Below the pieces are notes generated by a model. That model did not search any database. It was not told the DNA's origin and saw only the letters and a program-made list of their open reading frames with translations. A DNA stretch of 64,000 nt from a virus. Its lineage: Duplodnaviria > Heunggongvirae > Uroviricota > Caudoviricetes. The position numbers and the translations under genes were made by a program. The stretch is from IMG/VR virus record IMGVR_UViG_3300006217_000002. One strand, written 5' to 3'. Below, piece by piece: positions 26,576 to 64,000 of the stretch; position 1 is the stretch's first letter; each line of letters starts with the position of its first letter.

Positions 26576-29500
26576 ATGGATGAAATGAGATTTGAAGACA
26601 TCGGATATGGATCACATATATTAGAATATCCCAAAGATTTATCATTTTCTGAAAATGTTAAGTACGCAAGCGCTGAATTCAATAAACTTCATACAAGAAA
26701 AGTGAGACTTCCTGATGGTAAAGGAAATGTAATTTATCTATTAACTAATACATTCGATTCTGCTATTAGGATGATTAATTCCAATCACTTTATCATTCCT
26801 CCTTCATATACAAAAATTTTTTATCCTCAGTTTTCTGCAGGATCATTTATGGGAAAACGATATAAAGTTAATACTGGTAAATTGAAAAAGGATAGAGATG
26901 TGGTTATCAAATCGAAGACTAGGTTAAAACCATATCCTACAAAGAAACTTCAGAAGAGTATCGAAAATATTTTGTTTTCTACATCTGATATTTATGAAAC
27001 ATTCAAGCCTATAATGGATAGATATTCTATTAAACGTTGCTATGAAGAGTTCATGTCTAATTTCGTAGATGTGTTAACAAAACTAACTCCTGAAGTTACC
27101 CAACAGAAAGATGATCCTAACTGGAATAACAGGCTGATCATCATTGATGCAGATTCATTTAGCTTTAAAAAAGATGCTAAGTTAAATGATAATAAAACCA
27201 ATCCTCTATATCTAATATATCTTGCATTTCTGAGAAATAGAGATTTAAGTAATATGAATGTAGATATAGATATGATGATTTGTTCAAAGAATATGTTTCT
27301 GAAGTTCAATCCAGCAAAGACAACTATGAAGACTTGGAGCGTATTTAGACAAGGATTATTCAGAATCATAAATGCAAATTTGGATGATTATACAGAAAAA
27401 CTTTCTGAAGAGGAGAAGAACGAATTAGCAGAAACTGCAAACGATAAAATTGTAACAAATATAGTCAAGGATGCTACTGATCCTTATACTAAGAATGTAT
27501 CAGCATCTACTAAAGCTGTAGTAAATAATGCAGTTGAGAATAAACTTCGTAAACAAGTTGCGGTTGTTGTGGCTCAGGATCAGGAGATAAAAAAGACAAT
27601 AGGTGATGAAGAACCTAAACCTGACTTATTCAAGCAGAGCTTACAAAAACAATCTGCTGGATCTTCATTAATAAATCGAAATCCTATATCTAATCCTCTT
27701 GATAAGAAACATGAGAAATTATTTAAGAATATAGCAGGATATCAATCACTTGGATCTGATACTGGGCAGTATATTGACGATGACGATGAAGACTTCGATT
27801 ATCCTTATGAAGATGAGGATGAAGAAGGAGTGGAAGAATTCGAGGATGGTATCAAGACTGATGCTCAAGATCTTCTTATTAATGATGCTGACATTGCTGA
27901 AGAGATACTAGATGAAATTCAGGATAAGGTAGTTCCTTTGAAGAATGATAAGAATTCTCCTGTTAATTCAGCAAGAGATAAGAAGTTACGTGAAGAGCAA
28001 AAGAAAGTAGTAGTTCAAAATGAAACTATCGAACAGATACTTGAAAGAGATACATCGAATGTAAAAATTCAGGAAGAAGATAAATCTAGTGTAATGCATA
28101 CTACCAATCAGAATATGCATAAGATTAGATTTGCTAATTTTGATAAGACATACATCGATGAGATATACATGAGAGATATTGTGAAATGTTTCGATATGTT
28201 GAAAGATCAGGAGAGTCCTTTCTATATTACAAATATAGATATCAAAGATACATCTACTACACTTGATTTCAAAGATACCTGGACTGTTTCATTGAAAGAT
28301 GAATTAGGTAAGAAGCATACAATTAGAGTAGATATACCTAAGTTCCAAAATGACCGATTTATGTTAATCAACGGAACAAGGTTTATGATCTTAAAACAGA
28401 ACTTCTACAATCCTCTTGTCAAAGATACACCCGATACTGTTATCCTTACTACGAATTACAATAAGATTACTATACAGCGTAGATCCACTAAGTCTCTTGG
28501 TACTATAGAAAGAATCTTTAGCTTGATAAAGAAGAGCGGAGATTCTGATATGTTTATGACTGGAGATTCTAGCAAGGGAAACATGAAGTATATTTCTTCT
28601 CTTGAATACGATGAATTATCAAGAAGACTTTTCAGATTTAAGTCTGATAATTGTTTATTATGTTTCTCTAGAGACTATATTAAGGATAATATGGAAGATC
28701 AAATTCCTTCTGATATAAAAGGTAACGAGTTCTTTATAGGAATGGAAGGTAAAACTCCTGTACTGATAGATGAAGATACTGGATTGGATAGAACTGGAAG
28801 AACTATAGTCGATATTATAGAAGCTAATCTACCAGATCAATACAAAAAGATCTTTGATTCAATTAAAGGACCTAAACAGTCTATGTTTGTCGAGGGTAAA
28901 CTTGCAGGGGAATTTATTCCTATTATTTCTACATTGATAGTATGGATTGGATTAACAAAAGCTCTTGATAAAATGAATATTACTTGGAGATTTGATCCAA
29001 ATGCTAAACGAGTTCCTCAATCTACATCAAGTAAGAGGTATATAAGATTTGCTGATGGAGTACTTGAATATGAAGCTAAGACGTATGCAGAATTGATTCT
29101 TAATGGATTAGCTAAAATGAAACCAGAACAGTTCAAGTTTGAAGATTTCAACAGCGAAGTGGGATATGATGATTTCATTTACTCTCAATGGGGTAGTTAT
29201 AATGGAATTACAGAGTTGAAAAACTTTAAAGAATTCCTTATTGATCCTATAACAAAGAGAGTATGTCAGGATATGATGCTACCTGATGATCCAGCTGGAT
29301 TGTTAATAAGAGCAGTACAGTTATTATCTGACAATGCATATACCTCAAAAGCTTCTGATAAATCATACAGAACTAGATCTGTTGAAATTATTGCAGCAAT
29401 ACTTTATTCATGCTTAGCAACTCAATACAGAGCATACGTTAAATCAGGACGAAGAATACCTATGACACTGAATCAACGATGTGTAATATCTAAACTTATT

Positions 29501-31165: not shown

Positions 31166-31275
31166 CGCTTTGTTCGGTGGTAATTCGAACAATGGTTCTA
31201 ACTGCGGCGCGTTCGCCTGCAACTTGAACAATCTCGTTTCGAACTCGAACTGGAACATTGGCGCGGCTGTTTCTT
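31166..31275 (+). repeat. DGR template repeat (TR)
   Basis: 110 nt identical to the VR except at 11 adenines. Adenine-rich AAC/AAT codons in the VR reading frame. Confidence 0.9.
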
Positions 31276-31427
31276 TTATCCTCGTCGGGGCGTAAAACCC
31301 TTTTTGAATGCACTCTATCTTCCTCACCTCTTGGTGAAAATTTGCCCCATGCGTTGTTCGTTAGTAGCCTGTCGAAAGCGAAATAAGGGGATAAAAAGAG
31401 AGAACAGGCTATATCTAAAATGGAGGT

Positions 31428-32543
31428 TTGAATATGAAATCTTATAAAAATCTCTGGAAAATATTTATTTCAGAGAACACTATAAGGTATTCTATTTCAA
31501 AAGGTGCCATTGGGAAAAAGAAAAGGCGTGAAGTTAGAAAAATCATGAAAGATGTTGACGGTTACGTCGATGTCATTCATGATTACGCCTTGAATTTCCA
31601 TAATTATCATCATGAACCAGTCAAAATCCGTGATGGATGTAGTGGTAAGGAGCGAGAGATAATCGTTCCTAAATTTAATGAACACGTAATCCATCATATG
31701 GTGGTTTACGCGATGATGCCTTTGCTTACTAAAGGCATGTATAAACATACTTATTCTTCAATTCCTGGAAGAGGTCTTCATAAAGGAATGAAAAGAATCA
31801 GAACGTGGATTGACAATGATCCTAAAAATGTAAAGTATTGTCTTAAACTGGACATAAAAAAGTTCTTTAACTCGATTGATCATGAAATATTAATGAATAA
31901 ATTTAGAAAATATATTCATGACAATAAATTCTTGAAAATACTTCAAGAAATAGTTGATGCATCTCCTAATGGAATTCCTTTGGGATTTTATACTTCCCAT
32001 TGGTTTGCTAATTGGCTACTTCAACCTTTAGACCATTTTATCAAAGAAGAACTTCATATTGTTCACTATATAAGATATATGGATGATATGATTTTATTCG
32101 GGTCTAATAAGAGGCAATTGCATAAAGCTCGTAAAAAGATAGAAGAGTTTTTAAGTAATCTTAAATTAAAGATTAAAGATAATTGGCAATTGTTTAGATT
32201 CGATTATATCAAAAATGGAAAACATCATGGTCGTCCACTTGATTTCATAGGATTCAAATTCTATAGGGATAGAACTATTTTAAGGAAGAATATTATGTTA
32301 AGACTTACAAAGAAAGCGAGGAAAATCGAAAAGAAAGGTAAGTTTACAATTCATGACGCTCACCAAATGATGTCCTATTTAGGATGGATAGACTGGACTG
32401 ATACGTACAAAGTGTATACAAAGTACGTAGCTCCCTACATTAACTTTAAGAAGTGTAGAAAGTACATTTCACAGTATGATAAGAAACAGAGAAGACTTTT
32501 AAAAGAATTAAAGGAGGAATATAATTATGGAGCTGAATTTTAA
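31428..32543 (+). CDS. DGR reverse transcriptase
   Basis: IPGRGLHKGM, LDIKKFFNSIDHEIL, and YIRYMDDMILFG (YMDD, ~32076-32090). Sits 150 bp downstream of the TR. Confidence 0.9.
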   Translation: MNMKSYKNLWKIFISENTIRYSISKGAIGKKKRREVRKIMKDVDGYVDVIHDYALNFHNYHHEPVKIRDGCSGKEREIIVPKFNEHVIHHMVVYAMMPLLTKGMYKHTYSSIPGRGLHKGMKRIRTWIDNDPKNVKYCLKLDIKKFFNSIDHEILMNKFRKYIHDNKFLKILQEIVDASPNGIPLGFYTSHWFANWLLQPLDHFIKEELHIVHYIRYMDDMILFGSNKRQLHKARKKIEEFLSNLKLKIKDNWQLFRFDYIKNGKHHGRPLDFIGFKFYRDRTILRKNIMLRLTKKARKIEKKGKFTIHDAHQMMSYLGWIDWTDTYKVYTKYVAPYINFKKCRKYISQYDKKQRRLLKELKEEYNYGAEF

Positions 32544-35802: not shown

Positions 35803-36732
35803 ATGGATATCTCTGTAAAATTAAAAGAAAGATTCTGTAAGGATTATAAGATTCCAATTAACTTATTTCAGGAGCCGTACTTTACTGAGCGAATCAATCT
35901 ATATGATAAAGTATATGGTACAATTAGTAAGTACGAAAGATTTATAAATGCGATGAAGAAATACTCCACAGAGCAAGATTATTTTGAAGAATATAATAGA
36001 ACTAAAGACGTAGCCATTGACTTTATCAAAGGAACAGAAGCATATCAACGATTTAATACAGAAGATATGAATAAGTTTGCTGTTGATAATAGAGGTATTT
36101 CTAAACACGATATTTTCAAACCATCTAATGATGGTAAGTTGTTTATCAGTATAGATATGGTCAAGGCTAACTTTTCTGCTTTATCGCATTATGATAGTTC
36201 TATATTTGGTGGAGCTGAAACTTGGGAGGAATTCATATCTAGATTTACAAACAATGATCATATTATCAATAGCAAATATATCCGTCAGGTCATTCTTGGA
36301 AATTGCAATCCAAAGAGACATGTTACTTACGAACGATATCTTATGTCGAAAGTTCTATATATTCTTGAAAATTGCAAATATATAGACAACGTCGTATTTT
36401 ACAGCGATGATGAAATTGTTCTAGATATGTCTAATAACTTTCTTAGTAGATATGAATTTGAAAAATTTTGTAGAATGTTTGGTCTTGTGTTTCCATTAAG
36501 ATTCGAATATTTTACGCTTCATAAAATAGGTGGAATTGATGGATATGCAAAATGCTTTCGCAGTGACTGTGGAGCACCAAGGGTAGAATTTAAGTGTATT
36601 GATGGATATTCTCTGCCTTTTATCATGAGAAAATATCTTGGTGAAGTTATCACTGAAAACGATAAAGTGTTTTATCATAATGGATATTTAGCAAAATATA
36701 TAGAAATTCCTAATGTAGAATTGAGGTGGTAA
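35803..36732 (+). CDS. Hypothetical protein (309 aa) within the nucleotidyltransferase/CCA operon
   Basis: ORF with AAAGGAG RBS. Confidence 0.5.
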   Translation: MDISVKLKERFCKDYKIPINLFQEPYFTERINLYDKVYGTISKYERFINAMKKYSTEQDYFEEYNRTKDVAIDFIKGTEAYQRFNTEDMNKFAVDNRGISKHDIFKPSNDGKLFISIDMVKANFSALSHYDSSIFGGAETWEEFISRFTNNDHIINSKYIRQVILGNCNPKRHVTYERYLMSKVLYILENCKYIDNVVFYSDDEIVLDMSNNFLSRYEFEKFCRMFGLVFPLRFEYFTLHKIGGIDGYAKCFRSDCGAPRVEFKCIDGYSLPFIMRKYLGEVITENDKVFYHNGYLAKYIEIPNVELRW

Positions 36733-38108
36733 ATTTGGCTATTAGTAAAATCATTGGGGAAATGAAAGCTATTTCTCGAATTTGTATACCTGATGAAGTA
36801 AGAAGCATCATTAATATGCTAAATGATTCAAATTACAAAGCATACGTTGTTGGAGGTGCAGTGAGGGATAGCATTCTTGGAAGAGAAGTACATGATTGGG
36901 ATATATGTACATCTGCAACTCCTTATGAAATGATGACTGTCTTTAAAGATTTGAGAGTTATAGAAACAGGTCTTCAACATGGTACTATCACTGTACTTAT
37001 TAATGATATGCCAATTGAAGTAACAACGTTCAGAATCGATGGTAAATATTCTGATAACAGAAGACCTGATAACGTTACATTCACTGACGATCTTACAGAA
37101 GATTTACGAAGAAGAGACTTCACTATGAATGCAATTGCTTACAATCCTACAACCGGTATTGTTGACCCATTTGATGGGATTGGTGATATCGAAGAAAAAG
37201 TAATTGTATGTGTAGGATCTGCAAAAGATCGTTTTGAAGAAGATGCCCTGAGAATTCTCAGGGCATTGAGGTTTGCTGGACAATTAAACTTTGCATTGGA
37301 TAGTGATATAACTAAAGAGATTAGGAATTTATATAAGTTATTATCTAATATATCAATGGAAAGAATAAACAGTGAATTTTGCAAAATTATGCAAACAGAT
37401 ATGATCAATGTTATTGTCTTACAATACCCTGAATTGTCCAAATTGCTTATTCCTGAACTTGAAGATATGAGAGACTTTAATCAAAATAATCCATACCATG
37501 AGTTTGATGTTTTATATCATACTATGATGGCGTTGAGACGAAGTGGAACTAAAGATCTGATCATTCGCCTAGCAATTTTATTTCATGATATTGGTAAACC
37601 TTTTTCATATCAGGACGGTGATGACGGTCATAGACATTTTAAAGGTCATGGAAGAATAAGTGCAGAAATAGCTGGTAAGATAATGACCCGTATGAAATTT
37701 GACAACGATACGAGGGATAAAGTTGTTGAATTAATATATTACCATGATGCAACATTTCAGGTAGGAAAGAAATATGTAAAACGGTGGCTGAATAAAATAG
37801 GAGAAGATCAGCTCAGGAGATTACTAATTCTTAGAAGAGCCGATATCATGGGACAGAAACTCAATTATGAAAAATCAAGAATTGACAAAGTTAGCAAAAT
37901 GGAATTAGTGCTTGATGAAGTTAAGAAAGATAACGAATGCTTTACACTGAAAGACTTAGCTGTCAATGGTAATGATCTTATTCAGTTAGAATATAAACCT
38001 GGAAAAGAACTTGGAAATGTATTGCACAAATTACTTGATGAGGTAATAGATGGTAATGTAAACAATGACAAAGATGAGCTATTAAAATTATCAGAATCTT
38101 TTCACTAA
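36726..38108 (+). CDS. cca: CCA-adding tRNA nucleotidyltransferase with an HD domain; GTG start
   Basis: YVVGGAVRDSILGREVHDWDICT (~36851-36920). HD region LFHDIGKP...HFKGHGRISAEIA. Confidence 0.85.
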   Translation: MVNLAISKIIGEMKAISRICIPDEVRSIINMLNDSNYKAYVVGGAVRDSILGREVHDWDICTSATPYEMMTVFKDLRVIETGLQHGTITVLINDMPIEVTTFRIDGKYSDNRRPDNVTFTDDLTEDLRRRDFTMNAIAYNPTTGIVDPFDGIGDIEEKVIVCVGSAKDRFEEDALRILRALRFAGQLNFALDSDITKEIRNLYKLLSNISMERINSEFCKIMQTDMINVIVLQYPELSKLLIPELEDMRDFNQNNPYHEFDVLYHTMMALRRSGTKDLIIRLAILFHDIGKPFSYQDGDDGHRHFKGHGRISAEIAGKIMTRMKFDNDTRDKVVELIYYHDATFQVGKKYVKRWLNKIGEDQLRRLLILRRADIMGQKLNYEKSRIDKVSKMELVLDEVKKDNECFTLKDLAVNGNDLIQLEYKPGKELGNVLHKLLDEVIDGNVNNDKDELLKLSESFH

Positions 38109-38387: not shown

Positions 38388-39341
38388 ATGAGTAAAGCAA
38401 AGAAAGTCACTGGAGGTATTGTAGCAGCTGTTGTAATCGTGGTAGCTCTCGTGTTAGTTGCACTGAGTCTGAGGAAGATCGACGCAGGCTATTCAGGAGT
38501 AGTCTATTCCATGAACGGTGGAATTGAGGATCGTGTGCTTGGTCAGGGTTGGCATTGGATTAAGCCTGGTCAGAAGTTGATTCCATATAGTATCGGTATC
38601 GAACAGTCATATCTTACGGCTACCAAGGATGGTGACTCTCCTGACGATGATAGTTTCTCAGCTCCTTCCAGCGATGGTAAAGGGTTGACAATGGAGCTTA
38701 CTTTCACATATCGCTTTGATGAAGACAGGCTTCCTGAGATCTTTACGAGATTTAAAGGAAGAAGCGGTAAGGAAGTACTGAATACATTCATTAAACCTAA
38801 TATCATTAGCTGGTCTAAGGAAGTAACGGCTAAATATCCCGTTACTGAAATCTTAGGAGAAAAGAGATCAGAACTCAATAACGTACTGTCTGATTATCTC
38901 GCTGAGAAGTTCTCTCCTTACGGTATTATCATCGAAAATGCATCCCTTATCAATATTGAAACTGATGATGAAACCAGAGCATCTATCACTCGTAAGGTAA
39001 CAGCTCAGCAGGAGCTTGAATTAGCAAATATCGAAGCAAAAACAGCTAAGATTCAGGCAGAGAAAGATAAAGAAGTAGCCCTTATTGAGGCAGAAAAGAA
39101 TAAGGAAACTGCAGCTCTTAAGGCAGAACAGATGGCAATTGAAGCTCAGGGTAAAGCAGATGCTTTGAAGATCGCGGCAGAAGCAGAGGCAGAAGCAAAC
39201 CGTAAGATTGCTCAGTCTCTTACACCTGAATTGATCGAGAAGATCAAGTATGAGCAGTGGAATGGAGAACTTCCACAGGTTCAGGGTTCGTCTACACCGA
39301 TCATCGATTTCAGAGAAGACGGTGTGGCAACTACGGAATAA
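38388..39341 (+). CDS. SPFH/band-7 domain membrane protein (prohibitin/HflK-like)
   Basis: N-terminal TM helix. Band-7 core. A/E/K-rich coiled coil QQELELANIEAKTAKIQAEKDKE... Confidence 0.7.
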   Translation: MSKAKKVTGGIVAAVVIVVALVLVALSLRKIDAGYSGVVYSMNGGIEDRVLGQGWHWIKPGQKLIPYSIGIEQSYLTATKDGDSPDDDSFSAPSSDGKGLTMELTFTYRFDEDRLPEIFTRFKGRSGKEVLNTFIKPNIISWSKEVTAKYPVTEILGEKRSELNNVLSDYLAEKFSPYGIIIENASLINIETDDETRASITRKVTAQQELELANIEAKTAKIQAEKDKEVALIEAEKNKETAALKAEQMAIEAQGKADALKIAAEAEAEANRKIAQSLTPELIEKIKYEQWNGELPQVQGSSTPIIDFREDGVATTE

Positions 39342-49676: not shown

Positions 49677-50312
49677 ATGGCAGTACTAAATAAAACAAAA
49701 ATCTATTATGATGCAGAATTCACAGGTTTGACAAAAGACACGTCGCTAATTAGCATAAGTTTCGTTACTGACACTAATGATTATTTCTATGCTGAATTTA
49801 CTGATTACGATCAGAGTAAAGTAGACGGGTGGTTAAGACAACATGTAATCGATAATCTTCTATTTAGACCTGATGATGAAGAGTATCAGAGATATGTTGA
49901 CGATAATAGAAGTATTGTAATGATGACAGGTAATTCAAACTTTATCAGAACAAAGCTTCTTCAGTGGTTATCAGGAATATCAGAACTCACAGGAAAACAG
50001 ATTCAGATTTATACCGATTGCTATGCATATGATTGGGTTCTTCTTAATGATCTAATATGTAATGGAGCTCCTGCTATCAATATTCCTAAGTTCTTATACT
50101 ACATACCTGTTGATCTTTGTACTTTGATGCAGTATAAAGCTATAGATCCTGATATGAACAGGGAAGAATTTATAGGAGCAGAGAAAGTAAGAACTTTAAT
50201 GGCAATTGATCCTTTTGGTGAATTATCTCAAAATAAGAATATTAAACATAATTCTTTATGGGATGCATTTGTTGCCAGAGAATGTTTTCGTAAAGTTAAC
50301 TTGATGAACTAG
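49677..50312 (+). CDS. DEDDh 3'-5' exonuclease (DnaQ/RNase T-like)
   Basis: Exo I IYYDAEFTGL (~49704-49730). C-terminal HNSLWDAF (H-x4-D). Confidence 0.65.
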   Translation: MAVLNKTKIYYDAEFTGLTKDTSLISISFVTDTNDYFYAEFTDYDQSKVDGWLRQHVIDNLLFRPDDEEYQRYVDDNRSIVMMTGNSNFIRTKLLQWLSGISELTGKQIQIYTDCYAYDWVLLNDLICNGAPAINIPKFLYYIPVDLCTLMQYKAIDPDMNREEFIGAEKVRTLMAIDPFGELSQNKNIKHNSLWDAFVARECFRKVNLMN

Positions 50313-50373: not shown

Positions 50374-51225
50374 ATGGCAGATCGTAGTGATTTAGCAAAA
50401 AGAATGAAGGAAAATTATGAGAATCGTGCAAAGCATTCATTAATTAGGAGGATGCCAGTTGCAATCAGAATTGATGGTAAAGCTTTCCATAGTTTTACAA
50501 GAGGATTTAAGATTCCATTTGATGAAGTATTGATTCAGTCGATGCAGGAGACAATGAAATATCTTTGTGAACATGTACAGGGATGCGTATTAGGATATCA
50601 TCAATCAGATGAGATCACCCTTATTCTTGTTGATTATCAAAATTTACATTCTGATGCCTGGTTCGATTATAAACAAAGCAAAGTAGAATCAATTTCTGCG
50701 TCCATGGCAACAATGGCATTCAATAAGTCGTTTGAAATCAATGCTAACAACTACATCGCTAATGTGCATGTGGGAGGGGGCGTTCCTACAGATGGCAAGT
50801 ATATAGAATCGCTTAAAGCTGCGATTGAAAATAAAGCGATGTTTGATTCAAGGTCGTTCAATATTCCTAAGGAAGAAGTAACAAACTTGATCTTATGGAG
50901 ACAACAAGATGCAACAAGAAATTCTATTGAGATGGTTGGTAGAACATATTTCTCTGATAAGAGATTATATAAGATAAACACCAATGGTATTCAGGATCTT
51001 TTATTTACAGAAAAAGGAGTAAATTGGAATGATTTTCCTACTCATCAAAAGAGAGGTTCTTGTTGTATTAAAGAAAATTACCTGGTAGATACAGAAGGAA
51101 ATGAACATCCATTATCAGAGGATAAACCTGAAATGTCTCTACGTAGTCGTTGGGTTATAGATAAGGAAATTCCTATCTTTACAGGAGATGGAAGAGAATA
51201 TATTGAGAAACTTATCAATATTTAA
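50374..51225 (+). CDS. Thg1-like protein (tRNA-His guanylyltransferase family 3'-5' nucleotidyltransferase) with a C-terminal extension
   Basis: VAIRIDGKAFHSFT. GYHQSDEITLIL (the GQSDE-type motif, ~50596-50631). LILWRQQDATRN (WRQxD). Confidence 0.75.
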   Translation: MADRSDLAKRMKENYENRAKHSLIRRMPVAIRIDGKAFHSFTRGFKIPFDEVLIQSMQETMKYLCEHVQGCVLGYHQSDEITLILVDYQNLHSDAWFDYKQSKVESISASMATMAFNKSFEINANNYIANVHVGGGVPTDGKYIESLKAAIENKAMFDSRSFNIPKEEVTNLILWRQQDATRNSIEMVGRTYFSDKRLYKINTNGIQDLLFTEKGVNWNDFPTHQKRGSCCIKENYLVDTEGNEHPLSEDKPEMSLRSRWVIDKEIPIFTGDGREYIEKLINI

Positions 51226-53299: not shown

Positions 53300-53779
53300 A
53301 TGCCAACAGAAATTGAAAGAAAATGGTTATTAAAAACATTCCCAGCTATGGAAGGAGCATCTCATAGTGAGGTGGAGATAATATATCTTTCTACAGAACC
53401 TGAAATTAGAGTAAGGAAAAAAGTAGATTTACATAATGAAAAATGCAAATATATTATTACATTAAAATCAGATGGTTCTGTTTCACGTAAAGAATATGAG
53501 AGTAAAGTAAATAAAGAAATATTTGAAGGTGCTAAGATTTTGGTTCCAACGCCTCCTATCAATAAAGAACAATATAAACTTCAAGTTGATGAGCATATGA
53601 TTGTATTTAATAATGTCAATAACAATACATTCTTGTATGCAGAAGTAGAGTTTAAGACAGAAGATGAGGCTAATAAATATATTTTTCCATTCGACGATAT
53701 TGTGATTAAAGAAGTGACATACGATCCTAAATATAAAATGAAAAATTACTGGAAAGAAACCGTTAAACTTCATTCATAA
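53300..53779 (+). CDS. CYTH-domain (triphosphate tunnel metalloenzyme) protein
   Basis: N-terminal PTEIERKWLLK (ExExK). Repeated ExE strands EVEIIYL, EPEIRVRKK and YAEVEFK. Confidence 0.55.
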   Translation: MPTEIERKWLLKTFPAMEGASHSEVEIIYLSTEPEIRVRKKVDLHNEKCKYIITLKSDGSVSRKEYESKVNKEIFEGAKILVPTPPINKEQYKLQVDEHMIVFNNVNNNTFLYAEVEFKTEDEANKYIFPFDDIVIKEVTYDPKYKMKNYWKETVKLHS

Positions 53780-53796: not shown

Positions 53797-53837
53797 AATA
53801 AAGGAGGGGTATTGATACCCCTCCTTTATTTTTTTAT
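53797..53837 (+). terminator. Intrinsic terminator
   Basis: aataaaggaggggtattgatacccctcctttatt plus a T-run. Confidence 0.7.
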
Positions 53838-55687: not shown

Positions 55688-55718
55688 ATATACGGTGGGA
55701 TTGAATCCCACCGTATAT
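55688..55718 (+). terminator. Intrinsic terminator
   Basis: atatacggtgggattgaatcccaccgtatat. Confidence 0.6.
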
Positions 55719-56304: not shown

Positions 56305-56489
56305 TGACATTTAACATTCCAGGAATAATATGCACTCTGATAGTAGCTCCATTAATAGCTCAATTATTAAAGTGGCTAGATAATAGGCGAGTTTCTAAAA
56401 TCAGGAGACAAGAACAAGATGCAATAGGAGAAATATTCAAGTTCTTTGATGATTTAGAAAAAGCGCAGAAAAAGGAGAATGAGAGATGA
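56304..56489 (+). CDS. Small membrane protein
   Basis: Overlapping ATGA start. GIICTLIVAPLIAQLL hydrophobic segment. Confidence 0.4.
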   Translation: MTFNIPGIICTLIVAPLIAQLLKWLDNRRVSKIRRQEQDAIGEIFKFFDDLEKAQKKENER

Positions 56490-56746
56490 GTAAAGAAGAA
56501 TTAATAAAGAAATGCAACAAAGTAAAAGAGACAGCCGGAAATACTATTCCGTTTCATTCACCGGAAGTTGCCCCTGCACTTGCAAATGAATTACTTGCAA
56601 TCAAATTCGAAGCTATAAGAACATTTGTAAATGAAGAAGATGATTTCATCCAGTCATTCAATAATGCTAAAGAGACGCTGGAGAGTTTGGTGGAATATTA
56701 CAGTATGTATTTCTATGTATTTCTTCCAGGGAAAGTTTCAGAATAG
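56486..56746 (+). CDS. Small hypothetical protein
   Basis: RBS AAAGGAG. Confidence 0.4.
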   Translation: MSKEELIKKCNKVKETAGNTIPFHSPEVAPALANELLAIKFEAIRTFVNEEDDFIQSFNNAKETLESLVEYYSMYFYVFLPGKVSE

Positions 56747-56846
56747 ATAGAGGCGGAATTTAAGGACATTACCAGATACAGTGAACAAACATTGTGTCTG
56801 GTAATTTTTTAAATAAAAAATTACCAGAAGGAAAGAGGATTAAATA

Positions 56847-57546
56847 ATGAATAAGAAGTTTTACAAAGAAGAGGTTGTTATGGCTTGTGATTGGTTCAGT
56901 GATTTATATACAAATAAAAGGCTTCCAAGTCATGATTGTATATCTAAATGGTTCAATGAGTATTATGTTGAATCATTTCCTGTAAGAAATGCATATGTAA
57001 CTACTTTCGGTTTTCCTCTGTTAACGAAAGAAGTTATTGCTGAGATTACGTCGGCCATTAACAGCCTTGTGCATGTGGGAGGGGGCGTTCCTACAGTGCT
57101 GGAACTTTGTTGTGGTTCCGGTTATTTAGGAAGTCTTCTGAAAGGAAAATGGACTGAATGTTATCTGTACAGATAGCAATGCGTGGAAGAACGACGATCC
57201 TGTTCATGGTCATGGAAATTTCTTTCAGAAACCATATACAGAAATTGAAGAAATTGATGCTCTTGAAGCCATTGAAAAATACAAAGATAAAGCAGATGTC
57301 ATTATTCTGTCATGGCCGGAATATGAATCAGAACTTGCAGCAAGAGTTCTTGAGAAGTGTCTGAAGTACAATATTTCTATGATCTACATTGGCGAAAGAT
57401 ATGGTGGATGTACAGGAGATGATGAGTTCTTTGACATCATGGAAGAAAGGTGCAATGAAAGATTTATCAGTGACTCATATATACCGTTTCCTGGTATACA
57501 TGATAACATATATCTTGTGACAAAGAAACCTGAGTTAGTTAAATAA
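56847..57546 (+). pseudogene. SAM-dependent methyltransferase interrupted by a +1 frameshift near 57140-57176
   Basis: Frame 0 reads ...VLELCCGSGYLGSLLKGKW (motif I) and ends at TAG 57174. Frame +1 continues KENGLNVICTDSNAW...ADVIILSWPEYES... to TAA 57544 with no start codon. Confidence 0.55.
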
Positions 57547-57558
57547 GGAGGTACGATA

Positions 57559-58023
57559 ATGAAAGTTATTACAATAACAGCTGGTAATATTAACTATGTT
57601 TATGGGAGACTTAAGAAATTCTTCTATAACAGAAACAGAACAGGTTTCTTGTCATGGCATAACTTTGACTGCGGATTCAAGAAACATATTGATCCTAATA
57701 TTTATTTAGAAACTGACGGGAACAAAATTCCAACGTTTCATGAATATCCATCTCCAGATGACGTTAAACTAGTTAAGAATGGAGAGTACAGTTACATTGT
57801 GATGAATCTGATACCTGGTTATGGTTCAAGCCTTAAATGTGGTGATAAAATTGCATTCTGTGGTAATCGAATAATAACTAGATCAGAATTCTTCTTCGAT
57901 CACAAGTATATTTATAGCGTGATGCAGGTACTTCCAATGAACGAAAGCAAGCAGAGAAAGATGAGATCATATGCCGAAATGGAAGAGGCTGCATACGAAG
58001 AAGATTATTATAATAATTATTAA
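57559..58023 (+). CDS. Hypothetical protein
   Basis: RBS AAGGAGG. Confidence 0.45.
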   Translation: MKVITITAGNINYVYGRLKKFFYNRNRTGFLSWHNFDCGFKKHIDPNIYLETDGNKIPTFHEYPSPDDVKLVKNGEYSYIVMNLIPGYGSSLKCGDKIAFCGNRIITRSEFFFDHKYIYSVMQVLPMNESKQRKMRSYAEMEEAAYEEDYYNNY

Positions 58024-58040
58024 TTAAGGAGGATATAGAT

Positions 58041-58625
58041 ATGGCTAATAAATACGATATGAGAATTTGTAAATGTGGACATATTCATATGATTCCATGG
58101 GATAAAATAGATTCATCTGTAAAGGCTAATAAAAATCTTGTGCTGATATGTGCCAGATGCGGAGCTGGTACCATAATTGGTGCTGATATAGAACCAGATG
58201 AATTCAGTGATAAACCTGATGCAGTATGTTACATGATGTACGCAGGGGATTTATCTCCATATGAAGATAAGATCATCACAGAAGAATTCTTCAAAGGTAA
58301 TGATAAAGAAAAAGCCGTGACCGAAATATTATATAGTCATGGTTTGAGAGTTCCTATGATGACAGGTAATTATGCGGATAACTATTTCGATGGTAAATTC
58401 GCTGATATGTGGTATCCTGATTTCTATAAGATTCAGAGAAAAGATATCACTGTTCCTGAAATCATGGACTTTATCAAAACATGGACTGAGGAAAGAACAA
58501 CTGTCAACATGAGCAGATTTATAAATGAGAATCCGGAAGATATGATTGAAGAGATTTCTCATTACTGGATCAAAGGCTTTAACTGGGCCGGTACCAAATT
58601 TGAAAATGAATGGAATAAAAACTAA
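58041..58625 (+). CDS. Hypothetical protein with a zinc-ribbon motif
   Basis: CKCGHIH...CARCGAG. RBS AAGGAGG. Confidence 0.45.
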   Translation: MANKYDMRICKCGHIHMIPWDKIDSSVKANKNLVLICARCGAGTIIGADIEPDEFSDKPDAVCYMMYAGDLSPYEDKIITEEFFKGNDKEKAVTEILYSHGLRVPMMTGNYADNYFDGKFADMWYPDFYKIQRKDITVPEIMDFIKTWTEERTTVNMSRFINENPEDMIEEISHYWIKGFNWAGTKFENEWNKN

Positions 58626-58973
58626 ATAACACAACACATCTTAGGAGGTAAATGATATGAGTAGAATCAAAATCACTGACAATGGTATGGAAGTTTTAAT
58701 GAAAATGAGCGACGGAAATCCTGGCTGCCTTACATTCCTTATGCAGCTCTTTGATGATGACTTAAGCAAAGCATAAATGCTTTGCTTAAGGTTCGATACT
58801 ATGGAATTGTATGGAAGCAGACTTTATCAGCTGTGGAATGACTGCTGTGATAGAGATCTCGGAACCGTTTACAAAGTACTTGATCAATATAGCGATTCTG
58901 ATATTCTCCGTCACATCGACAATGGAAAAGGGTATGCCGATAGATTTGATCTAAAATAATATCGGAGGTGTTT

Positions 58974-59171
58974 ATGTTTAAAGACGATATTCATATAGAA
59001 CTTAACGGTTATGGAGATGCAGATGATTTTATTCTGCTCTCCATAGATCCTATAAATCCTAGTATTTTCAGAGATGCTAGACAGAAGAATTTTCCTCTGG
59101 AACATGCAACTCCGGAGTCAGTAGGAAATGCAATTGCTAAATACCTAAGAGAATATCTATGGAAGGAGTAA
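58974..59171 (+). CDS. Small hypothetical protein
   Basis: cggaggtgtttATG. Confidence 0.4.
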   Translation: MFKDDIHIELNGYGDADDFILLSIDPINPSIFRDARQKNFPLEHATPESVGNAIAKYLREYLWKE

Positions 59172-59175
59172 GTAT

Positions 59176-59370
59176 ATGTTAAGGGGGAAACCTTGCAATG
59201 AAGTAAAACATGATGACGTATTGGAAACGTTTAAAGAATTTACTAAAGCTGAAAAGATAATAACAGTTGTAGATGAAGAACCTTTAAGCCATATTGAACG
59301 TTTAGAATTACAAGCGTTGCAAATTTTATTCGAAAATAAGGAGGAATGTGCAGGATGTCTAAAGGAATGA
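59176..59370 (+). CDS. Small hypothetical protein
   Basis: RBS GGAAGGAG. Confidence 0.4.
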   Translation: MLRGKPCNEVKHDDVLETFKEFTKAEKIITVVDEEPLSHIERLELQALQILFENKEECAGCLKE

Positions 59371-59762
59371 GTATGGAAGAATTTCGTGCTGGTTTAGCTA
59401 GCGAAGCAACAAAAGAAAATGAGAAGCTCAAGGAAGAGATCTCAAATCTTAAAGCTGCACTTAAAAAGAAGAATGAAGAAATATCTGCTCTCCAACAAGA
59501 ACTGAAGGAAGTTAAACATCATTGTCAGAGTCTCGGCAATAGATGCTTTGTATTTTCAAGAGGCGTGATGTGTACTTATTGTGGTTGCGGAGAACTCTGT
59601 CCTCATGGCTTAACTGATGAAGAATACCATGCAATAGCGGTATTTATGAAAAAGAATCATCTTTCTCATACTGATGAAAACAGAGAGAAAGTTAATGAAT
59701 TCATTATTAATAGAAGACTGGAAGCTGCTAAACGAGAATTTGAAGAAAGGAATAAGAAATGA
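59355..59762 (+). CDS. Coiled-coil protein with a Cys-rich segment
   Basis: RBS AAGGAGG. HCQSLGNRCFVFSRGVMCTYCGCGELCPHG. Confidence 0.4.
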   Translation: MSKGMSMEEFRAGLASEATKENEKLKEEISNLKAALKKKNEEISALQQELKEVKHHCQSLGNRCFVFSRGVMCTYCGCGELCPHGLTDEEYHAIAVFMKKNHLSHTDENREKVNEFIINRRLEAAKREFEERNKK

Positions 59763-60397
59763 GAAAGGTATTGGATTATATAGTAACCCAAGGAAGATAT
59801 GGTAATATCGTATATCTTGATGAAGGTATTGATTGGTTTCCTTACAGAGATGACGAAAAGATTGAAGATCTTCCTGCGGTAGGGGCATGGTGTAAGAGAT
59901 GTGCTAAAGAAAGTGCTAAACCTATGATGCCTGTTTACATGAATTACAAACCTGCTTACGCATTACATTGCGAGAAATGTGGAAGTGAATATGCGATGTA
60001 TAAGAGCATGTTTATACAAAGATACGTTGGTTATGATACAGCTCACGGTGGCCATATTAATCCTACTCATGGATTAATATCTCATGTAGCAGCTATGGAT
60101 AGAAAAGCCCGTGAATATCATGACAGTATTCCTGACAGAGTTGCAGAAGATATGTGCAAGTTATTTCATTGCACTCGTGAGGAATATGACCATATGAAGA
60201 AAGGATGGGATGAGGAAAACAAGAAAGCTCATAAGAGGATAGAACGAGAAGCTGCGGAACGCCACGCTCGTTATCAGGATGAAGAGATCAAAAGAGAATC
60301 TGAAACAAGAAGAGACCTGATTGCGAGAGGAGTTCTGAAATATGTAAAGAACATCGGCCTTGTTAACACTGAAACTGGTCAGGTTGTCAAATTATAA
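59759..60397 (+). CDS. Hypothetical protein with a zinc-ribbon (CxxC...CxxC)
   Basis: CKRCAKES...CEKCGSEY. Overlapping start. Confidence 0.4.
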   Translation: MRKVLDYIVTQGRYGNIVYLDEGIDWFPYRDDEKIEDLPAVGAWCKRCAKESAKPMMPVYMNYKPAYALHCEKCGSEYAMYKSMFIQRYVGYDTAHGGHINPTHGLISHVAAMDRKAREYHDSIPDRVAEDMCKLFHCTREEYDHMKKGWDEENKKAHKRIEREAAERHARYQDEEIKRESETRRDLIARGVLKYVKNIGLVNTETGQVVKL

Positions 60398-60409
60398 GGA
60401 GATAATGAT

Positions 60410-61147
60410 ATGAAAGAGTTCAGAATTGCACCGTGCTTAACCAAAGATGGAACGAAGGACTTTGCCATATTTAAAGATGGTTCCAGAAAGAAGCTTATAA
60501 AAACCAGCGATAAATATGGAAAATATTTTGAGGTCGATAATGATCTTAATCCTGACGGAAAACCATTACTGAAATATAGTTTTACCGGAAGGATTAAGGA
60601 TGCTGTGGAAACAATAAGAAATGGTGGCGGAGACGTTATTTCAACATACAACATATTCGGAGAACACATAGTAGTTGAGTACTTCATAGATCGTTTTGTC
60701 GGAGATGAACTCAGAGCGAAAAGTATCGATGGTTGGAAAGATGCTAAGTTCGCATGGATTATTAAATGCGGAAATAAGAACAGTTTTTCTGGATATGCTC
60801 CTATTAATGATAAGGGAGAAAGAACATCGATGTTTGATGAAAATCGGAAACCTAAAATCTTTAATACGGAGGAAGAAGCAAAGAAGTTTATTGATGATTT
60901 ATTATCAAAAGCTTCTGAATATGCAAAGAATATATCCAGTGCTGTCGAAAGTGCCAAGAATGAGTATGAATCAAGTGATGCAATATCAAAAGGTATATCA
61001 GACATAGAGGAAGGCACCGGAACTAAATTCAGCGTAATAATGGATTTTGTATATGATATGCTTACTGGAGATGGAAAGCTAAAATCTAGCGAGTGTACCC
61101 TTGACGAATGGGGATATCATATTGAGCAGTGGGTTATTCAGTATTAA
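60410..61147 (+). CDS. Hypothetical protein
   Basis: RBS AAGGAG. Confidence 0.45.
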   Translation: MKEFRIAPCLTKDGTKDFAIFKDGSRKKLIKTSDKYGKYFEVDNDLNPDGKPLLKYSFTGRIKDAVETIRNGGGDVISTYNIFGEHIVVEYFIDRFVGDELRAKSIDGWKDAKFAWIIKCGNKNSFSGYAPINDKGERTSMFDENRKPKIFNTEEEAKKFIDDLLSKASEYAKNISSAVESAKNEYESSDAISKGISDIEEGTGTKFSVIMDFVYDMLTGDGKLKSSECTLDEWGYHIEQWVIQY

Positions 61148-61172
61148 ATAATGATCCTAAACATCGGGGGCT

Positions 61173-61206
61173 ATGAAACGCCCCCCCCCCGATGTTTAAA
61201 TATAGC
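61173..61206 (+). terminator. Terminator hairpin containing a C10 homopolymer
   Basis: aaacatcggggggctatgaaacgcccccccccgatgttt. Confidence 0.55.
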
Positions 61207-61225
61207 ATTTTAAGGAGGAAACAAG

Positions 61226-62368
61226 ATGAATTACTTGTATCAAGAACCATTAAGGTTCGACAAAGGAGTAGGTGTAGTTTTAGGATCTTTTTCACCTCTC
61301 CACAAAGGCCACTTAGATTTGATATATCAGGCCAAAAAAGAGTGTATGGGTGGGGCACTCGTTATTGTATGCGGCTATAATCAGGATAAGGGATGGCCGA
61401 AGATGACGTTGAAAGAAAGATATCAGATGGTCAGAGAATATTTTAAGTCAGACCCGCTCGTAGCAGTATATTGTCTCTCAGATGATGAAATGGGAATTGC
61501 TGAATATGCAACTAGACAGGATGAGTGGAAATGGGATATCTGGCTTGACCATCTGGAGAAAGATATAATTGCATTAAATTGTAAATCCGATGTTAGCCAA
61601 AAGGAAAATATTACGTTCTATACAGGTGAGTATGCATATTCAAGAGATCTCTCTGTATTAGGCTATAATACAAGATTGGTTGATCGCAAAATCCATCTCA
61701 TCAGCGGTACTATGATCCGTAATAATGTCATTAAGTACTGGGATGAAATCGCTTGGACATATCATCGAAAATTCAGTCACAACATTCTTATCACAGGTAC
61801 AGCTTCAGAAGGTAAGACAACTCTGGTTGAAGATATCGGGAAATATTTCAACCTTCCATATTCATATGAGTGGCCTCGCACATATATGGATGATCATAAT
61901 GTGTGCGATTGGGAGCTTGACGGAAGAGACTTCGTATCATTCTTGGAAGGTCAATATACCTATAACAGAAGCTGCATTGAAAGTAAGCATAATAACGGTA
62001 TATTTCTTTCTGATACAGATACTATCGTGACTAAAATGTATGCCAAATATTATGCAATGGATCCGGAAATGGATATGACCATGGAGGAATATGAAAAGGT
62101 TGTTGAGCCGGTAGCTGATATGTTTATCAAGAGATCCAACTGGGATAAGATCTTTGTGGTCCTTCCTAAGTCAGAAGAGTTTGTTGATGATCATACCCGT
62201 TATATGAAACATGGCACAATGGAGGCAAGAAACGAGTTGGCTGGAATTCTTCTTGATGAAATTTCTAAAGCCGGATGGAGCGATAAAATTGAACTCCTTA
62301 CAGGAGGGTATCTTAAGAACTTTGAAACTGTAAAGAATTATATCAATAGCATCGGAGGAACAGAGTAA
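61226..62368 (+). CDS. nadR: NadR-like bifunctional NMN adenylyltransferase / ribosylnicotinamide kinase, with no HTH
   Basis: GVVLGSFSPLHKGHLDLI (GxFxPxHxGH, ~61281-61330). P-loop ITGTASEGKTTLVEDIG. Confidence 0.8.
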   Translation: MNYLYQEPLRFDKGVGVVLGSFSPLHKGHLDLIYQAKKECMGGALVIVCGYNQDKGWPKMTLKERYQMVREYFKSDPLVAVYCLSDDEMGIAEYATRQDEWKWDIWLDHLEKDIIALNCKSDVSQKENITFYTGEYAYSRDLSVLGYNTRLVDRKIHLISGTMIRNNVIKYWDEIAWTYHRKFSHNILITGTASEGKTTLVEDIGKYFNLPYSYEWPRTYMDDHNVCDWELDGRDFVSFLEGQYTYNRSCIESKHNNGIFLSDTDTIVTKMYAKYYAMDPEMDMTMEEYEKVVEPVADMFIKRSNWDKIFVVLPKSEEFVDDHTRYMKHGTMEARNELAGILLDEISKAGWSDKIELLTGGYLKNFETVKNYINSIGGTE

Positions 62369-63084
62369 TGGATAAAATTAAGAATGTATTGAGAGATGAG
62401 TTTATCAGCGGGAAGAAATGGTATGATTTTGCATTTATGGGAGTCGGATTGATTCTCCAGGCTATCGCAATTGCAATGGGATTTATCAGTGGAGAACCGG
62501 AAAGTATTGGATTGATCATTTCCGGAATAATGGGAGTTGTATCAGTTGTATTATGCAGTCAAGGAAAGATTTCTTTCTATATATTTGGCTTCATTCAGTT
62601 GTTCACATACGTGTTCTGTTTCACTATTCCTAACAGACTCCATGGTGAAACTATTGAGAATGGTATGTATTTCCTGTCAATGCTGTATGGAATATATGTA
62701 TGGGCTAAACTATATGGACGAAACAACACAAATCAATCTACGGAAATTAAATCCAAGAAACTGACCATAAAAGGAAATATTATTACGGCAATCATATTCG
62801 TTGTTGGAACCTATCTGTATTATTTATTCTTGAAAAATGTTCCTATGTTTGGTGTTATGGATTCTGATCCATTTGTAGATTCTATTACATCTATTCCGGC
62901 ATATATTGCACAGCTTCTGATGATATTAGGTTTCAGAGAACAATGGATATACTGGTTCATTCTTGATGTAGGAAGTGTTGTATTGGCAGCAAGAGCAGGA
63001 TCGATGATAATGGTAGCACAGTTTGTATTCTGGACTATCAACTGTATATATGGATATTACAATTGGACTAAAATGTCAAAATAA
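62368..63084 (+). CDS. pnuC: PnuC-family nicotinamide riboside transporter
   Basis: 238 aa with multiple TM helices. Translationally coupled to the nadR-like gene (ATGG overlap). Confidence 0.65.
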   Translation: MDKIKNVLRDEFISGKKWYDFAFMGVGLILQAIAIAMGFISGEPESIGLIISGIMGVVSVVLCSQGKISFYIFGFIQLFTYVFCFTIPNRLHGETIENGMYFLSMLYGIYVWAKLYGRNNTNQSTEIKSKKLTIKGNIITAIIFVVGTYLYYLFLKNVPMFGVMDSDPFVDSITSIPAYIAQLLMILGFREQWIYWFILDVGSVVLAARAGSMIMVAQFVFWTINCIYGYYNWTKMSK

Positions 63085-63101
63085 ACAGAAAGGAGAAACA
63101 A

Positions 63102-63280
63102 ATGAGAATATGTATCAATGGGGGGGGGTAAATAAAAACCCCTCTTGTAAATTTAACGGCGGTGTTGATTGCCCAATTAAAGATCGTAAATGTGATAAAT
63201 GTGGTTGGAACCCTGAAGTATATGAAAGACGTAAGGAATTAAATCGTAAATATCCATCGAGAGTGAAGATACATAATTAG
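63102..63280 (+). CDS. Small zinc-ribbon protein whose 5' end contains a G9 tract. As sequenced, ATG 63102 with a good RBS terminates after 9 codons. The long frame starts at ATG 63110.
   Basis: aggag-6nt-ATG aga ata tgt atc aat ggg ggg ggg taa. A +1 G would fuse it to ...VNKNPSCKFNGGVDCPIKDRKCDKCGW. Confidence 0.4.
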
Positions 63281-63300
63281 TATCACTAAAAAGTTATAAT

Positions 63301-63330
63301 ATTAGCAGGGAGAAATTTCTCCCTGCTAAT
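63301..63330 (+). terminator. Intrinsic terminator
   Basis: attagcagggagaaatttctccctgctaat. Confidence 0.6.
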
Positions 63331-63392
63331 CATGTATATCTATAATCATTATTTTTTCTTTATTTTTAATATTATAATACATCGTGTTAATT

Positions 63393-63421
63393 ACTTGACA
63401 TACTTACTAGTTTTATATACA
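63393..63421 (+). promoter_or_regulatory. Sigma-70-like promoter candidate upstream of the tail-fibre paralogue
   Basis: TTGACA at 63393, a ~15-17 nt spacer, then TATATAC. Confidence 0.35.
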
Positions 63422-63444
63422 GAAATGAGAGGATGATTATATTA

Positions 63445-64000
63445 TGAGTAAAGAATTAGATCTTGGAAGAGTAGTTGGTAAAGATGCTACTATAAATGGA
63501 CAGAATGCTATTAACATCGTTGCTGGTAATAGCATTGATATTCAGCAACAGGATGGTACACTCACTATTGGTGTTGATGATACTCACTTCAATGATAAGA
63601 GTAATCCACATGAAGTGACTGCAGATCAAGTTGGTGCAGTACCAGTCAGTAGAACTGTAAATGGAAAACAACTTAATGAGAATATTTCTCTAAGTGCAGC
63701 CGATGTTGGAGCAGCATCTACTGATCATAGTCACGATGATAAACAAGATAAGATCAGCGGTATAAAAGGTCAGGTAGCATGTTTTGATGATAGCGGTAAT
63801 ATTATTGCTAAAACATTATCAATGGATGAATTGGGTTACGCATTATTCGGATTTCAAATAAATCCAGACGAGTCAGATCCTAGTAAAATTATTAAATACA
63901 TTGCACAGAATACCAGTTATGATCCAGCATTTATGGATTATGAAAAAGACGAGTTTAATTATGGTGATTGGGCTAATGCATGGTTTATTAAGAATATTAA
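63445..64000 (+). CDS. Tail-fibre-like protein, N-terminal paralogue of the DGR target. 3' truncated by the window end.
   Basis: MSKELDLGRVVGKDATINGQNAINIVAGNSIDI aligns with the target-protein N-terminus MAAKELDLGPVRGRDATINGQSAIELVGGKNIDI. A later shared segment is NYGDWANAWFIKN. Confidence 0.6.

Follow-up and report, generated by a model that had tools for sequence, protein, structure and literature searches.

What would a phage gain from a NadR-like enzyme and a PnuC-like transporter encoded side by side, and do the two overlapping genes at positions 61226-63084 of the tailed-phage record IMGVR_UViG_3300006217_000002 (IMG/VR; Caudoviricetes) encode such a pair? The stretch of DNA analysed as a whole, 64,000 nucleotides, is called the window below. 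From the sequence alone, an initial annotation had read the genes as a pair for the salvage of NAD+. In that reading, nicotinamide riboside (NR) is imported by the transporter and converted by the enzyme to nicotinamide mononucleotide (NMN) and further to NAD+, in answer to host defences that deplete NAD+. Our analysis favours a similar answer. With a probability of roughly 0.78, the pair is a NARP3-type cassette for NR salvage in a jumbo-type phage and most likely keeps NAD+ up when NADase defences are active.

Systems of this kind have been described before. Osterman et al. (2024; bioRxiv 10.1101/2024.02.11.579819) drew attention to the usual pairing of phage NadR with PnuC in one operon and suggested that this might be one more pathway of NAD+ reconstitution. 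Yan et al. (Sci Adv, August 2026; PMC13464706) studied the phage proteins Bas30_86 and Bas30_87. Bas30_87 bound NR, from which the authors concluded NR import, and Bas30_86 turned NR into NAD+ in two steps; both genes were required. Together they restored NAD+ pools and plaque formation in Escherichia coli with Sir2-HerA or DSR1. The system was named NARP3, and its distribution was given as "largely Enterobacteriaceae phages". Since the idea was predicted in 2024 and demonstrated in 2026, the interpretation of the window genes is supported but no longer novel.

Identity of the two proteins

Both open reading frames (ORFs) of the initial annotation, including their location on the plus strand, were borne out by the ORF check (Table 1). 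The product of the first gene matched the Pfam families CTP_transf_like (PF01467, amino acids (aa) 18-96, 38.5 bits at a cut-off of 21) and AAA_28 (PF13521, aa 187-344, 53.4 bits at a cut-off of 27), as well as phrog_3462, a family of phage nicotinamide-nucleotide adenylyltransferases (E 4e-61). A sequence search of PDB with this protein returned NadR only, namely the enzyme of Lactococcus lactis (6GYE, E 1.9e-45), that of E. coli (8X7F), 9X6F, and that of Haemophilus influenzae (1LW7). Chain 9X6F is phage Bas30_86, because its residue numbering fits that of PMC13464706 after a 6-residue offset. The AlphaFold2 model had a predicted local distance difference test score (pLDDT) of 88.8. The best eight PDB matches of this model in Foldseek were all full-length NadR proteins (L. 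lactis, H. influenzae, and E. coli), with template-modelling (TM) scores of 0.72-0.82 overall and 0.78-0.82 against 6GYF.

No N-terminal helix-turn-helix (HTH) domain was present in the NadR-like protein, only 12 residues of which precede the NMN adenylyltransferase (NMNAT) domain. The HTH is also missing from the active NadR of L. lactis (PMC7221760) and from Bas30_86 (PMC13464706). Catalytic motifs were compared in an alignment of the window protein with NadR of E. coli, H. influenzae, L. lactis, the Bas30_86 type, and Lak megaphages; the Walker B and kinase motifs were defined as in L. lactis NadR (PMC7221760). All canonical motifs were found, with the invariant residues given in Table 1. 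Both motifs that had been quoted in the initial annotation were located in the 380-aa protein, GSFSPLHKGH at aa 20-29 and GTASEGKTTLV at aa 191-201. Residue D307, the equivalent of Bas30_86 D275, which is essential according to mutagenesis (PMC13464706), is also kept. Pfam, PHROG, and PDB matches, the structural model, and the motif alignment thus bear out an HTH-less NadR with NMNAT and ribosylnicotinamide kinase domains. ORF 61226-62368 is confirmed by sequence and model as a NadR-type NMNAT/ribosylnicotinamide kinase, the enzymatic activity of which is predicted from homology.

The product of the second gene, described at first only as a PnuC-like protein with several transmembrane (TM-numbered below, as TM3 and TM7) segments, scored 119.3 bits with Pfam PF04973 (cut-off 27.3) and 113.2 bits with TIGR01528, the NCBIfam equivalog for the NR transporter PnuC (cut-off 42.45). 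It also matched phrog_1880 and, in PDB, the sequence of Neisseria mucosa PnuC (4QTN, E 7.6e-24). Its AlphaFold2 model (pLDDT 91) was aligned by Foldseek to 4QTN over 238 columns (TM score 0.84/0.85, root-mean-square deviation 2.4), the next match having an E value of 0.2; the comparison showed the Pnu fold of a seven-helix core and an N-terminal helix. The assignment to PnuC is therefore borne out by Pfam, NCBIfam, PHROG, and the sequence and fold matches to 4QTN, and membership in the Pnu family rather than in an unrelated one stands. All of the profiles that had been suggested for checking the pair, PF04973, the NMNAT domain (PF01467), and AAA_28, scored above their cut-offs. Given the Pfam, NCBIfam, PHROG, and PDB scores, chance is excluded for both gene identities.

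Gene arrangement and expression signals

The overlap of the two genes had been given as ATGG, which is incorrect. The nadR stop codon TAA occupies 62366-62368 and the pnuC start codon ATG 62368-62370, so that a single base is common to both (TAATG). Translational coupling, as proposed in the initial annotation, is plausible from this 1-nt overlap and from the pnuC Shine-Dalgarno sequence inside nadR, although the arrangement falls short of proof.

The cassette is bracketed by two hairpins (Table 1), which came from RNA folding and not from the promoter and terminator scan. In that scan, the number of sigma-70 promoter and terminator sites around the cassette was no higher than in shuffled sequence. 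The upstream hairpin sits between an orphan gene (60410-61147) and nadR; it likely marks the 5' boundary of the cassette unit or terminates the orphan gene before it. The downstream hairpin is likely the 3' end of the cassette transcription unit. Perfect palindromic hairpins of 30-34 nt were also seen in other intergenic regions of the window as self-reverse blastn matches; the set comprises 53797-53830, 55688-55718, and 63301-63330, one of which was folded (z -7), and these hairpins may be terminators of this phage.

A search of the whole window with Rfam at the gathering threshold detected no NAD+ riboswitch or other regulatory RNA, and a permissive scan of 60900-63500 for regulatory RNAs gave only sub-threshold hairpin matches. 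A NAD+ riboswitch upstream of the cassette was rejected on the empty Rfam scan.

Between pnuC and the downstream hairpin lies a small ORF for a zinc-ribbon-like protein with the pattern CKFNGGVDCP...CDKCGW. It is probably co-transcribed with the cassette and was seen elsewhere only in a contig of the same phage, L005. A conserved third gene of the cassette was considered and rejected, as neither this ORF nor the upstream orphans had a homologue beside the cassette at any other locus.

Table 1. Positions of the cassette genes, their motifs, and the signals around them in the window
Feature	Position	Strand	Details
G+C-rich 13-bp hairpin	61158-61198	+	RNA fold -21.8 kcal/mol, z -2.2; no T-run after the hairpin
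Shine-Dalgarno of nadR	61212-61218	+	AAGGAGG; 7 nt before the nadR ATG
NadR-like bifunctional enzyme, 380 aa	61226-62368	+	NMN adenylyltransferase domain ~aa 14-175, ribosylnicotinamide kinase ~aa 185-360
GxFxPxHxGH nucleotidyltransferase motif	61283-61312	+	GSFSPLHKGH, aa 20-29; G20, P24, G28, H29 invariant in the alignment
Second NMNAT signature ISxTxxR	61700-61720	+	ISGTMIR, aa 159-165; S160, I164, R165 invariant
Kinase Walker A P-loop	61796-61819	+	GTASEGKT, aa 191-198; G191, S194, G196, K197 invariant
Walker B region	62003-62023	+	FLSDTDT, aa 260-266 (D263, D265); D263, T264 invariant
Lid segment	62186-62200	+	DDHTR, aa 321-325; D322, R325 invariant
Shine-Dalgarno of pnuC	62354-62358	+	GGAGG; within the nadR 3' end, 9 nt before the ATG
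PnuC-type transporter, 238 aa	62368-63084	+	model with nine helices: N-terminal helix and eight membrane-length helices
Pnu ligand-binding motif WxxW(x)3D/N	62944-62967	+	WIYWFILD, aa 193-200; W193, W196 invariant; D200 is the Asp form
Cys-rich small ORF, 56 aa	63110-63280	+	between pnuC and the downstream hairpin; no Pfam or PHROG match
Perfect 13-bp hairpin	63301-63330	+	RNA fold -24 kcal/mol, z -7.05; 0/200 shuffles as stable

Relatives and mobility of the gene pair

In a phage genome collection, NadR matches were found in 375 records and PnuC matches in 389, with closely parallel organism profiles of the two sets. The best matches of both proteins in this collection were those of Prevotella Lak megaphages (38% identity for NadR, 39-43% for PnuC), and no match was obtained there at the DNA level. 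The closest relatives in a large protein database had 50-86% identity; the phage-like contigs on which they were located, up to 162 kb long, also carry NrdD/NrdG, Thg1, RtcB, RNA ligase, and phage-specific domains. NadR was followed directly by PnuC in all three contigs of relatives that were read, two of them found through NadR (72% and 52% identity) and one through a 71%-identical PnuC. In closer relatives, Thg1 was observed directly upstream of the NadR-PnuC cassette. The spacing of the two genes varied: a 17-nt overlap was seen in Lak phages, an 8-nt overlap in the 72%-identical relative, and a 1-nt gap in T5-like phages. An exact-sequence look-up of the NadR-like protein found no record, and a near-identical cluster (P0001) was found afterwards. 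No close relative was detected in bacterial and archaeal species genomes by exact peptide patterns, which are strict, so this is weak evidence.

The linkage of the genes was surveyed in IMG/VR at 80 loci that encode a NadR relative (contigs up to 554 kb long), with PnuC sought on the same strand within 4 kb. It was found at 70 loci: immediately downstream of NadR at 48, immediately upstream at 11, and further away at another 11. No PnuC was found at the remaining ten, one of which was cut off at the contig end. Beyond the cassette, the window and the compared loci had hardly anything in common, if anything at all. As the pair is conserved while its surroundings differ, NadR-PnuC moves between phage backbones as a unit.

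Variation at the strain level was observed just upstream of the cassette. Contigs L005 and L006 represent the same phage (99.3-99.8% identity) without a 4.4-kb block at 56457-60883, which holds about ten small orphan genes immediately before nadR. An 11-nt microhomology, TTGATGATTTA, is present at 56446-56456 and again at 60891-60901, and the junction in the two contigs, at this sequence, yields an in-frame fusion ORF of 132 aa. Orphan neighbours and an upstream region that differs between strains are what one might expect of a passenger, or of a decaying pair of host-derived genes functionless in the phage. We find this scarcely credible, since both ORFs are intact and have all motifs and good ribosome-binding sites, near-identical copies are retained in strain variants with a different upstream region, and the pair is conserved over many unrelated phage lineages at identities from 24% to 72%.

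Proposed mechanism and substrate

In the mechanism we propose, NR from outside the cell would pass through PnuC in the host inner membrane by facilitated diffusion. Phosphorylation to NMN by the NadR kinase domain would trap it in the cell, and the adenylyltransferase domain would transfer the AMP moiety of ATP onto NMN, yielding NAD+. For the cellular proteins, the established model likewise has NR entering through PnuC by facilitated diffusion and NadR trapping it metabolically (PMC7221760, PMC5749112). The two genes would be expressed together, nadR first, with the 1-base overlap and a ribosome-binding site of its own for pnuC. NAD+ would be supplied without host enzymes or NAD+ cleavage products, and the supply would depend on external NR. 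The most likely benefit would be that NAD+ is kept when Sir2-HerA, DSR, or similar NADase defences fire and, more generally, during the long infection by a large phage. We infer NR as the substrate, the enzymatic activity, and the anti-defence benefit from homology to Bas30_86/87, to the NadR proteins of L. lactis and H. influenzae, and to the PnuC proteins of N. mucosa and E. coli.

Several observations weigh against this function. The NadR-like protein scored 173.3 bits with NCBIfam TIGR01526, below the cut-off of 341.15, with model positions 2-313 of 325 covered. It likewise scored 98.2 bits with NF005988, under the equivalog cut-off of 201, and these scores mark it as a divergent member of NadR. 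Identity to the NARP3 proteins is 23% for NadR and 29% for PnuC. The PnuC-like protein has D200 at a position where N. mucosa PnuC, E. coli PnuC, and Bas30_87 carry Asn, and the NR-coordinating residues N45, Q94, and N180 of Bas30_87 correspond to G56, a gap, and D200. Finally, a counter-defence benefit is not separable here from a general metabolic one.

These differences were compared with those among characterised proteins. Of the Bas30_86 residues that are needed according to mutagenesis (window residue second), F11=F22, F110=Y132, I141=I159, D275=D307, and E80=D86 are kept or conservatively replaced, whereas K10=S21 and E230=N247, both named as contacts in PMC13464706, S112=G134, and D115=A137 are different. 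Most of the Bas30_86/87 positions with another residue in the window proteins are likewise not conserved in the active NadR and PnuC of bacteria and are therefore not family-defining. In particular, equivalents of N45 and Q94 are missing as well from E. coli PnuC, a proven NR transporter.

The ligand-binding motif WxxW(x)3D/N and the tryptophans of the TM3 and TM7 gates have been described in PMC5749112. In the PnuC-like protein, W112, invariant in a six-sequence PnuC alignment and in 70/70 viral PnuCs, is taken to be the TM3 gate tryptophan from its alignment position before the loop, and W233, at least 90% conserved in close PnuC homologues, is taken as that of TM7 from its position. All characterised NR transporters have the motif in the form WxxWxxxN; in PnuT, which transports thiamine, the residue is an Asp and is essential (PMC5749112). 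Among the NadR-linked viral PnuCs of the IMG/VR loci, WxxWxxxD was found in 61/70 and WxxWxxxN in 9/70. As Asp is thus the usual residue with a NadR partner, its prevalence argues that the Asp form of the motif would be compatible with NR.

The pocket nevertheless calls for an alternative to be weighed, in which the transporter moves another substrate (thiamine, riboflavin, nicotinic acid riboside, or a deoxynucleoside), the kinase traps it, and the pair is no NR/NAD+ module. The Pnu family includes PnuT and other vitamin transporters; in its Asp, the motif agrees with PnuT and departs from the characterised NR transporters, all of which have Asn; and the window protein lacks the Gln by which N. 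mucosa PnuC and Bas30_87 contact NR. This alternative is very improbable in our view. The Gln is also absent from E. coli PnuC, Asp is the majority form beside NadR, and the PnuC-like protein passes the cut-off of the NR-transporter equivalog (113 vs 42.45 bits). It is encoded with a full NadR whose NMN adenylyltransferase domain is intact and serves no purpose for any other vitamin, and each Pnu transporter goes together with the kinase that acts on the compound it carries (PMC5749112, PMC7221760). Evidence for NR as the putative substrate of the window transporter comes from the equivalog match and from the overlap of pnuC with nadR, and doubt from Asp in place of Asn and the missing Gln.

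A variant of the salvage reading was also considered. The cassette could belong to a large separate NadR-PnuC lineage of gut jumbo phages and megaphages, including Lak, possibly acquired independently of the enterobacterial NARP3, in which the altered pocket changes the substrate range (e.g., to nicotinic acid riboside or NMN) or the properties of transport relative to the characterised Asn-type NR transporters. The putative lineage would be recognised by an L. lactis-like NadR and a PnuC with WxxWxxxD and without the NR-contacting Gln. We regard this variant as unlikely.

Selective benefit

Conversion of imported NR to NMN and NAD+ against NAD-depleting defences, as claimed in the initial annotation, has been shown for the homologous NARP3 (PMC13464706) and is proposed for the present phage by homology. 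The defences named in that annotation were Thoeris, DSR, SIR2, and SEFIR types; the NARP3 experiments concern Sir2-HerA and DSR1 and not Thoeris or SEFIR (PMC13464706).

With the same chemistry from NR to NAD+, the selected benefit could instead be general metabolic support for a long and resource-hungry infection by a large phage. This overlaps with the counter-defence explanation, and the two are not exclusive. Among gut NAD-jumbo phages, pnuC was reported in 2024 from 68/174, with a pnuC-nadR-nadM cluster in nhp215, and was read as auxiliary NAD+ synthesis (PMC11662467). The cassette is also frequent on very large viral contigs, up to 554 kb, and no recognisable defence-related gene stands beside it in the window. 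On the other side, no NAD+-consuming enzyme was recognised among the approximately 45 window ORFs scanned, and the DNA ligase beside the cassette of a 50%-identical relative is of the ATP-dependent type; together these two observations fit counter-defence slightly better than simple supply. Moreover, the only experimental test of such a cassette gave a clear anti-defence phenotype at little cost to the host (PMC13464706). Metabolic support as the selected benefit is thus possible but doubtful, and maintenance of NAD+ under NADase defences is preferred.

Phage context and other features of the window

The window has a G+C content of 34% and is 91% coding with the standard code. It contains genes for a 1981-aa tape-measure-like protein, split DNA polymerase, topoisomerase II, subunits of a multisubunit RNA polymerase, and tail proteins. 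The RNA polymerase beta-like protein is nearest to those of PBS1/AR9 and Staphylococcus jumbo phages (~32% identity). Judged by these genes, the window is jumbo-type phage DNA. The direct neighbours of the cassette are the orphan genes upstream and a tail-fibre gene directly downstream. The nearest relatives of the RNA polymerase beta-like protein (26576-31030 region) and of the cassette (61226-63084) differ, being PBS1/AR9 and Staphylococcus jumbo phages for the former and, among catalogued phages, Lak phages for the latter, which suggests that cassettes are exchanged between very different gut phages.

Of the other features of the window, the most notable is a complete diversity-generating retroelement (DGR). 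Its reverse transcriptase is encoded at 31428-32543 on the plus strand (RVT_1, E 8e-21; phrog_1423, E 3e-102). The template repeat of 113 nt is located at 31166-31278 (plus strand), and its reverse complement matches 24440-24552. This match lies at the 3' end of the target, a tail protein gene on the minus strand (24426-26045; phrog_5302, E 6e-84). Of 12 mismatches between template and target, 11 fall at template adenines. The target lies on the strand opposite to that of the template and reverse transcriptase, at a distance of 6.6 kb, and the RNA polymerase beta-like gene is situated in the interval.

In the 503-aa protein encoded at 21335-22846 (plus strand), sigma-70 region 4 (aa 44-94, E 8.5e-15) is joined to the C-terminal domain of the RNA polymerase alpha subunit (aa 156-215, E 2.2e-27), an unusual combination for a phage transcription factor. 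Genes for the repair or maturation of RNA and tRNA are located at 19712-21277, 36726-38108, 49677-50312, 50374-51225, and 53300-53779. The set consists of a phrog_850 RNA-binding protein, a CCA-adding enzyme (PolyA_pol and HD domains), a Rv2179c-like 3'-5' exoribonuclease, a Thg1 tRNA-His guanylyltransferase, and a CYTH-domain protein. No tRNA genes were detected in the window.

A SPFH/Band 7 protein is encoded at 38388-39341 (plus strand; E 1.8e-28), 22 kb from the cassette. In T5-like phages, SPFH genes stand just upstream of the NARP3 cassette; a link between the SPFH gene and the cassette in the window is probably a coincidence.

Comparison with known systems

The cassette is a distant but intact member of the known NARP3/PnuC-NadR class and not a new kind of system. 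It adds NAD+ reconstitution of the NARP3 type to a jumbo-type phage with its own RNA polymerase. With Lak, Lactobacillus, and Bacillus phages and 70/80 of the sampled IMG/VR loci, the NARP3-type module is much wider than "largely Enterobacteriaceae phages", and it passes between unrelated phages as a two-gene unit. The finding opens no new question; it can be used in annotating the anti-defence content of gut viromes and in picking diverse cassettes for testing. In PHROGs, the families of both proteins (3462 and 1880) already carry the label of auxiliary metabolic genes.

NARP3 itself consists of Bas30_86 and Bas30_87 of Escherichia phage TrudiRoth and is carried by T5-like Salmonella and E. 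coli phages (PDB 9X6F/9X6H). Like it, the window cassette is a two-gene phage unit of an HTH-less NadR (NMNAT and ribosylnicotinamide kinase) and a co-oriented PnuC directly downstream, and both NadR proteins have HxGH/TxGH, ISxTxxR, Walker A and B, and D275 (window D307). The genes are separated by a 1-nt gap in NARP3 and overlap by 1 nt in the window. The carriers also differ: NARP3 is found in enterobacterial T5-like phages, the window cassette in a jumbo-type phage that encodes an RNA polymerase of its own and has a G+C content of 34%.

Bacterial PnuC-NadR salvage (1LW7; 6GYE/6GYF/6GZO; 8X7F; 4QTN) relies on the same two proteins, and the chemistry predicted for the window pair is the same. 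Among solved NadR structures, that of the HTH-less L. lactis enzyme is closest (34% identity, E 1.9e-45, TM score ~0.8). In E. coli, pnuC and nadR are at separate loci and NadR has a repressor domain, whereas in the window the genes form an overlapping viral unit, at which neither NadR-type regulation nor a NAD+ riboswitch was found.

Lak megaphages (MK250015-MK250029; the records are unannotated) have the same gene order, with the 17-nt overlap and the Asp form of the PnuC motif. When 41 kb of Lak-A1 were compared with the window, one weak match was found besides the cassette, the phrog_850 protein at 19712-21277 (25% identity). Kinship with Lak megaphages was ruled out, as little but the cassette is common to both and the RNA polymerase points to PBS1/AR9-like and Staphylococcus jumbo phages. 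An alternative genetic code as in Lak was rejected, as the coding density obtained with the standard code gave no sign of recoding.

Lactobacillus Herelleviridae (LP65, Bacchae, Dionysus, and others) and Bacillus phages, which are virulent phages of Firmicutes, also have both families adjacent, and the genes carry annotations in GenBank and PHROGs. Their NadR is 33-35% identical to that of the window, and their PnuC only 26-28%. In the LP65 group, pnuC is located upstream of nadR with a gap of ~75 nt, the opposite order to that of the window.

NARP2 (KVP40-type, Nampt and NMNAT) and NARP1 (Adps and Namat) lead to the same outcome, resynthesis of NAD+ by the phage. NARP2 uses nicotinamide and phosphoribosyl pyrophosphate, and NARP1 ADP-ribose and nicotinamide; neither includes a transporter, unlike the window cassette, in which PnuC would bring in the precursor from outside the cell.

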